A DNA stretch of 35,545 bases, from contig CAZFXZ010000002.1 in the NCBI GenBank assembly GCA_964523165.1, forward strand, positions 1-35,545, given 5' to 3'. This stretch comes from an uncultured Gammaproteobacteria bacterium (lineage in GTDB: Bacteria; Patescibacteriota; Patescibacteriia; JACRDY01). Below the pieces are notes generated by a model. It had not been told where the DNA came from. It ran no database searches and saw nothing but the letters and a program-made list of their open reading frames with translations. This document shows, in pieces, positions 4,457 to 29,312 of this stretch. The translations under genes were made by a program, and so were the position numbers. Positions within the stretch are counted from its first letter, which is position 1. Every line of letters begins with the position of its first letter.

Positions 4457-7923
<3,467 letters not shown>

Positions 7924-25412: not shown

Positions 25413-25856
25413 TTATTTTTTGTTAATTATGACAGTAAAAAATCCTTGATGATCACCGACCAATTTATAGCCGACGCGATGGGAGCCAATTTCTTTTAAG
25501 GGCTGACTATATAATAAATCATCGGCCGACATTCTGATTTTTGATTTGGCTAAGGCGTTGATAATTTCCGTGATCGGCAAACCACCAAAAAGCTTACCGG
25601 TTTCACTAGCCGGTGCTTCAACTGTGATTGTTACCTTAGCCAAACGACTGGCGATTTTTTTGGCTTCCTTGATTTTGCGCTCGGTCAATTTTTGCTTGGC
25701 CGTGGCTTGAGAGCGCCATTCATCAATCACTCGCTGCGTGGCAGCAACCGCTAAGCCGTTGGGCAATAAAAAATTACGGGCGTAACCGTCCGCAACTTCT
25801 TTAATCTCCCCCGGTCTGGCTACTTTTTGAACGCCTTTTAAGAAGAGAACTTTCAT
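25413..25856 (-). CDS. rplI: 50S ribosomal protein L9
   Basis: [36 protein letters not shown] is canonical L9. Confidence 0.92.
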
Positions 25857-25867
25857 AATCCGTAGCT

Positions 25868-25876
25868 AGTATATCA
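25868..25876 (-). promoter_or_regulatory. Extended -10 promoter element TGATATACT for rplI
   Basis: The reverse complement of 25868..25876 is TGATATACT. It ends 11 nt before the rplI ATG, implying a very short leader. Confidence 0.4.
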
Positions 25877-25884
25877 TACTGTAT

Positions 25885-25920
25885 AAAAAAAGTCCCATTC
25901 CGGCAAAACCAGAGTGGGAC
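25885..25920 (-). terminator. Rho-independent terminator downstream of the high-GC gene
   Basis: On the minus strand the sequence reads GTCCCA-CT-CTGG-TTTTG-CCGG-AA-TGGGAC, followed by TTTTTTT (the plus-strand A-run at 25885..25891). Confidence 0.6.
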
Positions 25921-25977
25921 AAAGGGGCAAGGACCAAAGGGTAAAACCCTAAGACCCTAAGTTTCAAGCACTCACTT

Positions 25978-26017
25978 GCCTGCCCGCAACCGCTACGCGG
26001 TAGCGTTGCAGGCGGGC
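25978..26017. other. Long GC-rich imperfect hairpin of about 18 bp overlapping the last 8 codons and stop of the high-GC gene
   Basis: The arm GCCTGCCCGCAACCGCTAC pairs with GTAGCGTTGCAGGCGGGC around a 3-nt loop, with one bulge, one mismatch and one G-U pair. No U-run follows on either strand. Confidence 0.5.
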
Positions 26018-26619
26018 GCGACGACGAACGCGAAACCGTTCCCGCGACGCCACCGAAGGCCGGGCCTGACATAGCACGCGTCGAGCCACGGGCCGTCGCC
26101 GTCACGACTCGCGTCCAGCAAGCGCGGACCGCCGACGGAATCGTTGATCGGCTGGTGCATAGTGACCAGCCAGATCAGGCCCATGGCCGCGATGTCGCCG
26201 TCCGAGCAGTACTCGCGGATCAGGCAGGCGATCTCGGCCTGCGGGGTGGCAAAGCGACGGGAAGCGGCTTCGGCGCGGATCTTTGACGTGATCCGGTCAG
26301 CGTCTTCGAAGAGCGGGCCCTTCAGGACGGCGACTTCGACCGTCACGTCATTCGTCGGGCGAAAGTCGGGTGAGAGTAGGACGCTTTTGGCGTAGTCGCT
26401 GACTTTTATCCCTTTGTCTTCCAGTCGAGGAACCCACTGCTCGCCGGTCGTGCCGTCGGAGGTGACCGAGAAATAGATGATCCCGCCGTGCTCACACCAG
26501 CGGCGGTCCGGCCGACAAACGGTCGTCTCGCCGCTCAGGAACGCGTCGACCCCCGGGTCGCCACCGAGTTTGTTGAATACCGCCTCGGCGCGACCAAACG
26601 TTGCCTGTGAATACTTCAT
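25993..26619 (-). CDS. Hypothetical 208-aa protein encoded by a high-GC gene, apparently of foreign origin
   Basis: I chose the ATG at 26619 because AAAGGAG lies upstream, with GGAG 8 nt from the ATG. GC3 is very high, with codons such as GGC GAC CCG GGG GTC GAC GCG TTC CTG. It has no TM helix or signal peptide, and I can assign no catalytic motif. Confidence 0.8.
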   Translation of the reverse strand: MKYSQATFGRAEAVFNKLGGDPGVDAFLSGETTVCRPDRRWCEHGGIIYFSVTSDGTTGEQWVPRLEDKGIKVSDYAKSVLLSPDFRPTNDVTVEVAVLKGPLFEDADRITSKIRAEAASRRFATPQAEIACLIREYCSDGDIAAMGLIWLVTMHQPINDSVGGPRLLDASRDGDGPWLDACYVRPGLRWRRGNGFAFVVAPACNATA

Positions 26620-26771
26620 GACACTAACTCCTTTCAGCTGATAGCTGAAGTTCATCCACACCTGATAGGAGTGGACGCTTGACCACCATGGTCACAGCCA
26701 AGAATTACCTAGAAAATAAGTAGCTTTTGGCTATGGCCAATAGTGTTAAAATCAAAGAACTACAGTTTTTC

Positions 26772-26800
26772 ACTGTAGCACATACGCCTGATTTCGTCAA
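26772..26800 (-). promoter_or_regulatory. Sigma70-type promoter TTGACG-N17-(TGC)TACAGT upstream of the high-GC gene
   Basis: The reverse complement gives TTGACG (26800..26795), a 17-nt spacer and TACAGT (26777..26772) preceded by TGC. It starts 5 nt after the stop of the upstream gene and predicts a 5' UTR of about 145 nt. Confidence 0.5.
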
Positions 26801-26805
26801 GTTAT

Positions 26806-27750
26806 TTACAACGTGGTAATGGGCCGACTTTGAGTGATATAAAACTTACTTTTTTCAAAGGCCCATTCGATATCGCAAGGAAATTTGTAGTGTTTTTCGA
26901 TGCCTAGACAGATACTAGCTAGCTCTAATATCTGTTTTCCGCTCAATTTTTGGGCGTTAGCAGCCTTTTTGGGGACGGGTTGCCATTTTATACCGCTACC
27001 CGGTTTTTTGACCAATTGGCGGGCTTGTGGAGCGACGTTTATATCCAACAAAAATTTGCCCTTTTTGTCGATCACATAACTATCGGGTGTAATTTGACCG
27101 GAAACAATGGCTTCACCCAAACCCCAACCGGCTTCGATGATCATTTGATTTTTATCTTGAGTCACGGGGTGGACGGTAAAGGCGATACCAGAGATTTGCG
27201 ACTGGACCATTTTCTGCACGACCACGGCTACTGAAACATGGCTTTTGGTGAGTTTCTTTTCGTGACGGTAAAAAATTGCCCGCGGCGTAAACAGAGATGA
27301 CCAGCATTGCTGGACATTTTTTAGCAAAGTTTTACTATCGGTATTTAAATAGGTTTCTAGTTCGCCGGCCCAACTGGCGTCCGCCGAATCTTCAGCCGTG
27401 GCTGAACTTCGCACAGCGACTAACGGACTTTTTAACTTTTTAAATTCGGCTAAAATCATGGTCGCCAAATCTTTAGGAAATTTGGCCGTGCTAATTAAAG
27501 AACGGATCTCTTGTGAAGCTCGTTCGACTGAAGCAATGTCTTTATAGTTTACTTTTTTTAATATGGCTTGAACTTCCACTAGTAAATCCGTTTCAGCTAA
27601 AAATCGATCAAAGGCCGGAGCCAAAACAACAAAACCCGGCGGCACGGGAATACCGGCCTGAGTCATCTCCCCCAAACTGGCGCCCTTACCACCGGCTTGG
27701 GCGACGCTTTTTTTGGACAACTTTGCGAAAGGTAAAAGAAATGTGGTCAT
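26806..27750 (-). CDS. Stand-alone PEP/pyruvate-binding (PPDK_N) ATP-grasp domain protein
   Basis: 314 aa. The N-terminus has VAQAGGKGASLGEM, followed by VAVRSSATAEDS. The C-terminus CDIEWAFEKSKFYITQSRPITTL marks the end of the PPDK_N domain. Confidence 0.85.
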   Translation of the reverse strand: MTTFLLPFAKLSKKSVAQAGGKGASLGEMTQAGIPVPPGFVVLAPAFDRFLAETDLLVEVQAILKKVNYKDIASVERASQEIRSLISTAKFPKDLATMILAEFKKLKSPLVAVRSSATAEDSADASWAGELETYLNTDSKTLLKNVQQCWSSLFTPRAIFYRHEKKLTKSHVSVAVVVQKMVQSQISGIAFTVHPVTQDKNQMIIEAGWGLGEAIVSGQITPDSYVIDKKGKFLLDINVAPQARQLVKKPGSGIKWQPVPKKAANAQKLSGKQILELASICLGIEKHYKFPCDIEWAFEKSKFYITQSRPITTL

Positions 27751-27773
27751 ATAATGTCATTATACTCTTTTTA

Positions 27774-29312
27774 TCATACCGCCGTGGCGTCAACTTCGAC
27801 TCGATCGCCGTCAGATAAAATTTTAGTCGCTAATTTTACACCAACCAAACAAGGTGTTTTTAATTCACGACTGACGATAGCCGCATGGCAGGTGATGCCG
27901 CCATCTTCGGTGATAATCGCTTTGGCTTTTTTCATGGCCGGCACTAAGGCCGGGAAAGTCGTGTGAGCCACCATAATATCACCCTTGTTCATCTTACTCA
28001 TCTCTTCAGGGAAATTAACAATTTTGACCAAACCGGTCGCTTGACCGGGACAAGCACAAGTTCCATTTAACTCTGAAATGCCAGCGATCTTTATTTTTTC
28101 AAACTTTTGTTTGGCCAAAAACTTTTTAGCTGCCGCGCCGACCAAAATTTTTGTTTGACCATCTTTCATCCAGAGCAGACTATGCTTTTTACGCTGATCC
28201 AATATTTTTGGAGAAACAATTTTGTTTTTTTCTAAAGCTTGCTGCAATTCATCAGCCGTCATATAACGCACTTGCATCAAAGACAAATCCAGACGTTTAG
28301 CCGCCTCGGCTAGTAAGAGGTTTAAAACATACATGCCGTGATACAGACAGTCTTTGCGAAAGCCTTTGATAAAAACAATATCTTGAGCCGCGGTAAATAT
28401 TTGTTGATAATGTCGATCAATTTTTAGCTGACGATAAAGTTTTTGTTGAGCTCGACGAGTCCTGTCTATAGTGCCGGCAAAACCGCCCAGCATTTTATCG
28501 GGCCGAACTTTTTGCCGAACCAAACCTGACAGTACTTCAAGATAATAATCCAGATCATAAGTCGGGCCTTGATAGCCATAAGGCAACCACAGCCATTTTT
28601 TGTGCAAAGCCACAATAGCCCGCTGCAACGCCGGCGAAATGTTGGCCAATTTTTTGACGATTTTAGCCGTATCTTTTTGACGAAAAACTTTTTTAGCTTG
28701 TTTGTCAGCGAGAATTTTTTTTAACAATAATAATGCTTCTTTTTCCTCTTGGCGAGCCAGACTTTCACGAAGTGGCGTGGTCAGTAAGCTAAAAACTTCA
28801 GCAAAATTAAGATCGGATTTTTGGTCAGAGATTTTTTGTCGCAAATAACTTAACAAATAATTAGTCAGGTCTTCGCCGTCGCTATCGACAAACCAAGTCG
28901 TTAATAAACTATGACGATGGCCCATCATCTGATGATCAAGGATCTGACGATGCAATTTAGCTATATCTTTATTGCTTAAGGTTGACAGTTTGAGTCGGCG
29001 CAAATTTTTAGCAAAAGCAAAATAATTTTTATTGATCTTGATAGTTTCTCTATGAATTTTATCAGCCCAAGCTGGTTTGGTGATTATTTTATCCAAGGTT
29101 TGTTGGATCATGTCACGCAATTGCCTGCTAACTAGATAACTACCGGGGTTATCATTATTAGCAAAAACAAAAATCGCCTCGCGGACCGGAAAAGCGCCCA
29201 GATGCTCTTGTGACCAATAAAAGCCCGAGACAATGGGGTGCATCATCTGGTAATCGACGCGACTGATGGCAAAATTTTTACGCCAAATTTTTGATTTGGC
29301 TTTATTGTTCAT
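27774..29312 (-). CDS. Protein with a helical substrate-domain-like N-terminal region plus a C-terminal PEP-utilizing-enzyme mobile (phosphohistidine swivel) domain
   Basis: The C-terminus reads GTCACPGQATGLVKIV...GDIMVAHTTFPALVPAMKKAKAIITEDGGITCHAAIVSRELKTPCLVGV, which contains the conserved TxH phosphohistidine motif. No PEP-utilizers_C TIM barrel follows. Confidence 0.8.
   Translation of the reverse strand: MNNKAKSKIWRKNFAISRVDYQMMHPIVSGFYWSQEHLGAFPVREAIFVFANNDNPGSYLVSRQLRDMIQQTLDKIITKPAWADKIHRETIKINKNYFAFAKNLRRLKLSTLSNKDIAKLHRQILDHQMMGHRHSLLTTWFVDSDGEDLTNYLLSYLRQKISDQKSDLNFAEVFSLLTTPLRESLARQEEKEALLLLKKILADKQAKKVFRQKDTAKIVKKLANISPALQRAIVALHKKWLWLPYGYQGPTYDLDYYLEVLSGLVRQKVRPDKMLGGFAGTIDRTRRAQQKLYRQLKIDRHYQQIFTAAQDIVFIKGFRKDCLYHGMYVLNLLLAEAAKRLDLSLMQVRYMTADELQQALEKNKIVSPKILDQRKKHSLLWMKDGQTKILVGAAAKKFLAKQKFEKIKIAGISELNGTCACPGQATGLVKIVNFPEEMSKMNKGDIMVAHTTFPALVPAMKKAKAIITEDGGITCHAAIVSRELKTPCLVGVKLATKILSDGDRVEVDATAV

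Follow-up and report, generated by a model that had tools for sequence, protein, structure and literature searches.

The window analyzed here, a 35,545-nt stretch of DNA from the patescibacterial contig CAZFXZ010000002.1, contains a short GC-rich block with a single gene on the reverse strand (25993..26619, 208 aa). This block is very probably a stand-alone (solo) copy of a Patescibacteria-specific variable-protein gene of diversity-generating retroelements (DGRs), one that would now encode an ordinary binding protein with a frozen variable region (VR) and whose GC content would be under selection at the level of the transcript. In a DGR, a reverse transcriptase (RT) copies the RNA of a template repeat (TR) into cDNA with misincorporation at positions opposite adenines, and this cDNA takes the place of the VR of a target gene, by which about 15-20 codons of its binding surface are rewritten.

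A family of DGR variable proteins in Patescibacteria

Searches with the protein of the block retrieved 1,416 homologues at E<=1e-3, with ~60% identity. The best of these (more than 100 proteins of 200-215 aa) were 58-65% identical over 94-100% of its length, and none exceeded 65% identity. All informatively named sources were Patescibacteria, the Candidate Phyla Radiation (CPR), including Pacebacteria, Vogelbacteria, and Wolfebacteria. When one genome per GTDB species was scanned, relatives were found in 199 species, and 80 species-level loci fetched from this set constitute our family survey.

The retroelement is revealed by locus L003 (Wolfebacteria). There, the final 134 nt of the gene reappear 473 nt farther downstream (82% identity), each difference between the two copies corresponds to an A in the downstream copy, and genes for bAvd and RVT_1 come next. 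This arrangement is a DGR signature, in which the end of the gene is the VR and the downstream copy is the TR. A TR-like copy of the VR was present elsewhere in the locus in 47 of the 80 loci, mostly 300-440 nt past the stop codon. Typical copies were 125-134 nt long and 79-94% identical to the VR, and in most loci the mismatches fell wholly or nearly wholly at TR adenines (e.g., 15/15, 16/16, 18/18, and 21/21). VR/TR pairs were verified in L003 and in ~44 further loci. By census, 41 of the 80 loci hold a full cassette, 3 keep a TR-only remnant, 26 are solo (no TR, avd, or RT, with 2.5 kb or more of sequence downstream), and 10 were undetermined. Full cassettes consist of a promoter, a structured leader of ~150 nt, a Shine-Dalgarno (SD) sequence, the GC-rich target coding sequence (CDS) with its VR at the C-terminal end, a ~330-nt spacer, the TR, avd in opposite orientation, and the RT gene, in that order. 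Since a TR with adenine-biased differences, avd, and RT accompany the gene in 41 of the 80 loci, we conclude that the family consists of DGR variable proteins of Patescibacteria.

In the alignment of the family (A2), the N-terminal ~160 residues were well conserved and led into a C-terminal block (P.LL.A.R...G.WL.A....P...W.R..GFAF). Hypervariable columns occupied residues ~165-195 and coincided with AAC codons of the TR; it is at exactly these columns that the window protein departs from its relatives. The assignment also agrees with the literature, since DGR clade 2 occurs in CPR alone, and a recognisable transmembrane or conserved domain is typically missing from its targets (PMC8144416). 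CPR VRs have likewise been assigned to unknown classes (PMC5758913). The initial annotation could assign no motif to the product, and this was borne out: Pfam, NCBIfam, PHROGs, and PADLOC gave 0 matches at E<=1, and a sequence-profile search of the PDB gave no meaningful match. The AlphaFold2 (AF2) model, computed from 110 aligned sequences, had a mean predicted local distance difference test score (pLDDT) of 86 and a predicted template modelling score (pTM) of 0.75. Foldseek comparisons of this model with the PDB and BFVD gave best E values of 0.06-1 and TM-scores of at most 0.34. Among these weak matches, the top 50 in the PDB and many in BFVD were C-type lectin domains, by which a C-type lectin fold is hinted at.

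Several details of the cassettes deserve mention. The avd gene abuts the TR in L018/L003 and in most full cassettes (e.g., L006, 8943-10442); if TR and RT were co-transcribed, the RNA beyond the TR would be antisense to avd. The RT gene of L003 has an in-frame TAA at 6208-6210 (corresponding to ~10172 in L018). A conserved in-frame stop in the RT was considered and rejected, with 30 of 31 RTs intact and the stop present in L003/L018 only, and the DGR of L003 may be inactive despite VR/TR differences at ~22 adenine sites. Finally, near-identical TRs were found in metagenome-assembled genomes (MAGs) assigned to different candidate phyla, and the genomic contexts of the gene vary between genomes, which makes horizontal spread of cassettes among CPR lineages plausible.

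A solo copy with an altered 3' end

The elements of the block, listed in the direction of transcription, are as follows:

26772..26800, reverse strand: sigma-70-type promoter TTGACG-N17-TACAGT (promoter scan; -35 at 26795-26800, -10 at 26772-26777)
26620..26765, reverse strand: conserved structured 5' leader, ~146 nt (covariance model R1, covariation, and single-sequence fold)
Helices of the leader, reverse strand: P1, 26729-26739 with 26689-26699; P2 hairpin, 26705-26723; P4, 26656-26674; P5, 26634-26648
26628..26634, reverse strand: SD sequence AAAGGAG, directly 3' of P5 (read from the sequence)
25993..26619, reverse strand: GC-rich CDS of 208 aa, homologous over its full length to CPR DGR variable (target) proteins
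26524..26619, reverse strand: N-terminal module of ~32 aa, MKY..G..EAV.NKLGG..G...FL.GE (metagenome open reading frames [ORFs] downstream of the leader, and alignment A2)
26016..26139, reverse strand: VR, the last ~44 codons before the altered C-terminal tail (alignment to TRs of other genomes)
26016..26037, reverse strand: invariant GC-rich 3' end of the VR, GGTTTCGCGTTCGTCGTCGCGC, resembling an 'initiation of mutagenic homing' (IMH) segment (conserved between VRs and TRs family-wide)
25978..26017, reverse strand: palindromic insertion of ~37-40 nt, a GC hairpin over the stop codon TAG at 25993-25995 (fold of -28.7 kcal/mol; family comparison)
25947..25968, reverse strand: candidate remnant of the conserved post-VR segment, CTTGAAACTTAGGGTCTTAGGG (family consensus TTTGAACTTAGCCCTTAGCCC; 3' ends compared by eye, weak resemblance)
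25885..25920, reverse strand: intrinsic terminator, a hairpin at 25892-25920 followed by U7 (-18.4 kcal/mol, z -5.5)

A repeat search and blastn at word size 7 found no repeat of 25993-26200 in the window, and tblastn with the RT and Avd sequences of the family detected no RT or avd there. The copy has kept its whole expression module and a CDS with a VR of diversified look, with TR, avd, and RT not on the contig. Aligned to TRs of other genomes, its VR showed 33 mismatches in 124 nt. The VR was identical in three assemblies (the NCBI contig and two Logan assemblies) from two sequencing runs.

The 3' end of the gene departs from the family pattern. In most members, the VR/TR homology stops at GTGTCGCAA, followed by a small conserved covarying hairpin (..GGGAC-TTCA-GTCCC..) and then by CCCTTAGCCC. 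The window has the invariant segment GGNTTCGCNTTCG at 26016-26037 (the role of IMH segments is described in PMC5758913), after which comes a GC-rich inverted repeat, at 25978-26017, that is an insertion relative to the family consensus. This palindrome (CCCGCCTGCAACGC...GCGGGCAGG) sits within the family site GTGTCGC^AAGTCAG, at the 3' end of the TR/VR homology, turns the C-terminal tail ..SQVSSQN into ..APACNATA, and supplies the stop codon. It is the hairpin that had been noticed over the stop codon, and our folding recovered it (-28.7 kcal/mol, z -2.9). Rfam had no match for the 3' region at the gathering threshold or at E<=10. Insertions of the identical kind occur in L211/L024, L113, and L173, and every carrier found is a solo locus. 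Decay of cassettes is documented by TR-like remnants without detectable avd or RT within 6-8 kb in L010 (9026-9098), L023 (5985-6128), and L056 (8934-9060), and these TR-only loci look like intermediates in the decay of a full DGR to a solo target.

The palindrome, placed at the exact 3' end of the TR/VR homology, may disrupt the homing site and lock the VR, and the product, with its VR frozen, would then be a binding protein of the ordinary kind, probably located in the cytoplasm. We lean, by a modest degree of belief, toward a frozen VR in the window, given that the palindrome occurs in solo copies only, that TR-only remnants exist, and that the VR is the same in all three assemblies. The alternative is that the gene is still live as a remote target: TR cDNA would come in trans from a DGR located elsewhere in the genome, and the hairpin at the end of the VR would serve as a cruciform or target-recognition element, the role that such a hairpin has past the IMH in the Bordetella phage BPP-1. 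We regard this as unlikely, yet deserving of serious consideration. The ORF, the leader, and the IMH-like segment are intact, as is the GC-rich inverted repeat that immediately follows this segment; solo copies, at 26 of the 70 determinable loci, are common; and one 35.5-kb contig of the genome was examined. There is also precedent, in that some DGRs have known remote targets and homing is promoted by GC-rich inverted repeats that follow the IMH (PMC5758913). However, the palindrome breaks a conserved site of the family, all of its carriers found are solo, two sequencing runs yielded one and the same VR, and L010, L023, and L056 show that cassettes do decay.

Expression signals and support for the assembly

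The claim that the block stands out from its surroundings by its GC content was upheld by sliding-window GC and by GC at third codon positions (GC3), both of which set the CDS apart from the whole rest of the 35.5-kb window. The CDS has a GC content of 0.646 (GC1 0.63, GC2 0.51, GC3 0.80), and 300-nt windows peak at 0.68 over 26000-26299, against 0.36-0.49 in the other 600-nt bins. The GC3 of the neighbouring genes pyrG, rplI, PPDK_N, and PEP-utilizer is 0.39-0.47, and in all 28 other ORFs of at least 150 aa it lies between 0.33 and 0.51. The composition of the block is indeed foreign to the host genome.

The block was also described as a self-contained single-gene unit, and its promoter, structured leader, SD sequence, and terminator were all recovered. 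The promoter TTGACG-N17-TACAGT lies 5 nt past the TAA of the upstream gene and aligns with the family consensus TTGACA-N17-TATAAT at equal distance to the leader. The predicted 5' untranslated region of ~146 nt folds at -50.2 kcal/mol (z -4.4). The GGAG of the SD sequence AAAGGAG is located 8 nt ahead of the ATG, the family consensus being AAGGAGA, and the terminator ahead of rplI folds better than all of 200 shuffles (0/200 folded as well). That the CDS is the only gene with a canonical SD sequence likewise held, since 0 other ORFs of at least 150 aa had an SD-like motif within 20 nt upstream of the first ATG, a rough test with uncurated start codons. The host appears to start translation largely without SD sequences. 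Upstream regions elsewhere in the window are A/T-rich; by contrast, the cassette carries a consensus promoter and SD sequence. At 26759-26779 on the reverse strand is an 8-bp inverted repeat (CTACAGT-gaaaa-ACTGTAG) that takes in the -10 box TACAGT and the start of the transcribed sequence. A T-rich stretch comes next, and the scan flagged the element as terminator-like; it is found in no other family member.

Anomalous composition in a single gene set between housekeeping genes could point to an artefact: contamination, a chimeric assembly, or a GC-rich RNA that does not code and was taken for a gene. We give this explanation practically no credence. The Logan assembly of SRR8893624 covers window positions 25844-26934 at 99.8% identity with two mismatches, both outside the CDS, and that of SRR8893623 takes in the gene, rplI, and the start of pyrG. 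Because two independent Logan assemblies reproduce the junctions (99.8-100% identity), the block is not an assembly chimera, and the concern raised in the initial annotation falls away. Moreover, the ORF is in frame across more than 1,400 sequences, its GC1, GC2, and GC3 are those of coding sequence, and AF2 models it with confidence (pLDDT 86). Between the NCBI contig and the SRR8893624 assembly, the sole differences are at 26739 and 25928. The difference at 26739 alters the first base of leader helix P1, changing U-A to C.A at a pair that is invariant in 44/44 family sequences.

A compositional bias restricted to target genes

The GC excess of the window gene is a property of the entire family. 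Gene GC exceeded flank GC in 79/79 loci, with a mean difference of +0.141 and a range of +0.03 to +0.30, in hosts of 27-59% GC, and gene GC tracked host GC (r=0.61). Outside the VR, the excess of the target was still +0.126 on average. Relative to flanks, the parts of the cassette differed as follows:

Target gene: +0.141
TR (copy of the VR): +0.124
VR-TR spacer: +0.007
avd: -0.030
RT: -0.049

The ~250 nt upstream of the gene, leader included, were near host GC, and the edges of the GC island coincided with the start codon and the VR's end, not with the ends of the cassette. Synonymous sites followed the same pattern. At 4-fold sites of the target outside the VR, A/C/G/T frequencies were.09/.46/.23/.22, with C in.73 of NNY codons and G in.56 of NNR codons; in 277 host ORFs the corresponding values were.22/.25/.22/.31,.33, and.37, and RT and avd had host-like values at 4-fold sites. 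The GC-richness is a family-wide bias to C-ending codons that is limited to target genes.

These data bear on the proposal that the gene was recently imported from beyond CPR, with a high-GC organism (e.g., an actinobacterial host) as donor, and has not yet adjusted its composition. The sharp contrast in GC and GC3, the only canonical SD sequence in the window, and the varied genomic contexts of the family would all suit such an import. However, informatively named homologues are all Patescibacteria, none closer than 65% identity, which also removes the Actinobacteria or another host lineage as donor, homologues being essentially confined to Patescibacteria. The GC excess recurs in every one of the 79 loci across hosts of 27-59% GC, the island ends at the start codon and the VR end, and within these cassettes a host-like composition is seen in RT, avd, spacer, and leader. 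The proposal fails because a donor signature would mark the whole transferred segment and not one gene of a co-inherited cassette, and we consider recent import very improbable. A bias limited to the CDS and to C at synonymous sites must therefore be upheld by selection or a gene-specific process, and it points away from ancestry.

Folding of the CDS was compared with that of synonymous-codon shuffles within the gene. Targets were more structured than their shuffles (mean z -1.78, n=20), in comparison with 0.00 for the RT control (n=14). Identity between homologues at 4-fold sites was.45 for the target vs.29 for RT, at similar amino-acid identity. On this moderate evidence, the codon bias is most likely upheld by transcript-level selection for stability or structure. 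An explanation without selection on mRNA would be GC-biased gene conversion, or recombination occurring very often at a locus under diversifying selection: A and T are both depleted at synonymous sites, near-identical TRs and cassettes across candidate-phylum labels suggest exchange, and the higher 4-fold-site identity of the target accords with it. Yet there is no GC3 gradient away from the VR, where the cDNA is integrated, the shift is chiefly to C with G unchanged at 4-fold sites, RT and avd, within 1-2 kb in the cassette, are unaffected, and synonymous shuffles of identical composition are less structured than the CDS. We hold this explanation to be improbable.

Other candidate causes were tried and rejected. 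A gradient expected of conversion tracts was absent, GC3 being 0.57-0.60 in the first 45 codons, ~0.65-0.76 further on, and 0.59 in the last 13 codons. Adenine-specific depletion over the whole CDS, as by a DGR RT acting on mRNA, did not fit, with T also depleted, G unchanged, and C gaining; the bias is not adenine-specific and is thus no by-product of adenine mutagenesis. GC-rich members contain long antisense ORFs (e.g., an ORF of 219 aa in L003), but a conserved antisense gene was dismissed as the cause of the GC3 bias, and these ORFs are taken as a by-product because the sense codons TTA, CTA, and TCA are rare.

Several points weigh against a solo copy that is frozen and under transcript-level selection. 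Only 19 of the 33 mismatches of the window VR fall at TR adenines, the TRs being heterologous and none from this genome; the others are ordinary divergence from non-cognate templates. The search for TR, avd, and RT spans one 35.5-kb contig of a MAG, and a trans-acting DGR elsewhere is possible. The identity of the VR rests on consensus assemblies, which can hide minority variants. The mRNA-structure z-score of the window gene itself is only -0.53. Lastly, Foldseek returned nothing below E 0.06 from the PDB or BFVD, which gives no confirmation of the C-type lectin fold that DGR targets usually have.

A conserved leader RNA shared by several target families

The ~150 nt that precede the gene are conserved in full cassettes and solo copies alike. 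After the promoter comes a conserved single-stranded 5' segment, AGTTCTTTGATAAGACTTGCGAT, then P1, a 12-bp helix (TGGTCATAGCN...N'GCTATGACCA), an internal loop (AAAAG / TTCCT) that is nearly invariant, a P2 hairpin that varies, P4 (CCTCG-GATTA-GAGG), P5 (GGGC-AAATTA-GCCC), AAGGAGA, and the ATG. RNAalifold applied to alignment A3 yielded 24 pairs, 15 of which have compensatory changes. In A3, 95.8% of cells pair, vs 35-52% with slid partners, and none of 500 shuffles reached any observed measure. One pair is G.U in 38/44 sequences, which argues for an RNA on the sense strand, and folding of the window leader as a single sequence gave matching helices. The covariance model R1, built from 44 sequences with the window sequence in the seed, matched the window once (26606-26772, 96.7 bits, the window being part of the seed) and detected the leader upstream of the gene in nearly all non-seed family loci. 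Rfam 15 had no match in the window at the gathering threshold and no relevant match at E<=10 in 25800-26900.

When metagenome contigs were scanned for the leader pattern, at least 120 loci were returned, and the same scan of viral_contigs returned none. Among the matches listed, 57 of the 106 loci with room downstream carry the family of the window after the leader (tblastn). The others have different ORFs of ~150-240 aa with VR-like C-termini (..WWFAGVRK, ..QVFSRN, ..RFLAVR), and Pfam scans of seven of these other targets gave no match. TR-like repeats occur downstream of leader-associated ORFs, and in three blastp clusters their mismatches fall at TR adenines in 310/364, 64/64, and 15/15 cases, the largest cluster (310/364) merging the family of the window with the ..WWFAGVRK family. 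A like codon bias is seen in other leader-associated target families. The N-terminal ~32 aa of the window protein (MKY..LG..EA..NKLGG..G..FL.GE) are common to many other leader-associated ORFs (metagenome loci L087-L206, e.g., L104, L188, L135, L132, and L149), including otherwise unrelated target families, which suggests modular recombination of DGR targets. Since the leader precedes several target families with adenine-biased TR-like repeats downstream, the sequences indicate that the leader, often together with the N-terminal module, is a common 5' module of CPR DGR targets. We found no description of this leader, or of the target-only codon bias with extra mRNA structure, in the DGR literature searched, and both appear undescribed.

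How the leader might act can be considered at two levels. The conserved UUCCU loop and a CCUCC-like arm of P4 are complementary to the SD sequence, and control of translation by SD sequestration is a reasonable guess. A further observation is that, in family loci, the leader's conserved unpaired 5' segment shows a complementarity of 8-13 nt with the very end of the TR/VR homology, ~650 nt downstream, and the two sides appear to co-vary; examples are L011 (leader ACCAACTTGCGA / VR end TCGCAAGTTGGT), L056, and L006. In an anchored partner-permutation test the observed extension was 1.82, vs 1.26+-0.08, with 0/500 permutations as high, and in a duplex-energy test the signal was weak (mean z -1.3). 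Both halves of the pairing are missing in the window (26740-26765 vs 26016-26025) and in L022. Taken with the leader helices P1-P5 and the C-biased, over-structured CDS, the complementarity (ACTTGCGA / TCGCAAGT) has led us to contemplate that CPR DGR target transcripts are functional structured RNAs, either an RNA-level module for retrohoming (e.g., marking or presenting the 3' boundary of the VR) or one gating translation of the variable protein. This idea is speculative and we think it probably incorrect; were it to hold, the palindrome of the window would substitute locally for the long-range pairing, or lock it.

Comparison with known systems

The closest parallels are the CPR DGR targets of clade 2 (Roux et al. 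2021) and of the 'CPR set', whose unknown VR classes are UVR1-6 (Wu et al. 2018). They share with the window gene its taxon, a small ORF without Pfam domain, transmembrane helix, or signal peptide, a C-terminal VR with GC-rich invariant flanks, and, in its homologues, avd and RT after a TR that differs at adenines only. The window copy differs by having no TR, avd, or RT on the contig and by the palindrome at the VR end.

The mechanistic prototype, BPP-1 (mtd-avd-TR-brt), has in common with the family the adenine-specific differences between TR and VR and an IMH-like GC-rich VR end, and with the window copy a GC-rich inverted repeat just past the VR. However, the order in the family is target, spacer, TR, antisense avd, and RT, and the target is cellular and not a phage tail fibre. 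No phage context was found, the leader pattern has no match in viral_contigs, and the C-type lectin fold is unconfirmed. Remote DGR targets (e.g., in Treponema and Legionella) also have a VR-bearing gene apart from any RT, but theirs is a known cognate TR elsewhere in the genome, whereas the evidence for the window leans to a decayed cassette. Genomic islands acquired by horizontal transfer display a similarly sharp local anomaly in GC and codon usage and their own expression signals; in contrast, the anomaly of the window type is confined to the CDS, recurs in every host, and is absent from co-inherited RT and avd.

Neighbouring genes

Split pyruvate-phosphate-dikinase-like genes are found near DGR targets in several CPR genomes (window 26806-29312, L014, L063, L073, L013, and L207-L209). 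The set comprises one ORF of 314 aa with PPDK_N alone, and PEP-utilizer-domain ORFs that stand apart from it, in some cases in 3-4 copies. The closest PPDK_N homologues are 72-76% identical and have different genes downstream of them, and in these closest relatives the split genes adjoin genes resembling those of type IV secretion systems (PrgI, TraC-like, and TraG). The PEP-utilizer neighbourhood, which recurs in L014, L063, L073, and L013, is no clear case of synteny, gene order being different.

Implications

What appeared to be an island of horizontal transfer is a recognisable element, and the gene may carry the annotation 'solo DGR variable protein', with the idea of a host-lineage donor dropped. 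The window itself is of moderate interest. Beyond it, three regularities emerge, for none of which the DGR papers searched yielded a description. Several unrelated target families of CPR DGRs have a common covarying leader RNA of ~150 nt that is absent from Rfam. A strong bias to C-ending codons and GC, with extra mRNA structure, persists in targets at any host GC but not in the RT and avd that share their cassettes. Over a third of family copies are solo, one subgroup having a palindrome at the exact end of the TR/VR homology. These general regularities need phylogeny-aware statistics and experiments before they are claimed. If the features are functional, they would bear on the expression or recognition of DGR targets in organisms in which DGRs are unusually abundant, and the combined signature of composition and RNA motif offers a simple way to find DGR targets, orphans included, in CPR genomes.

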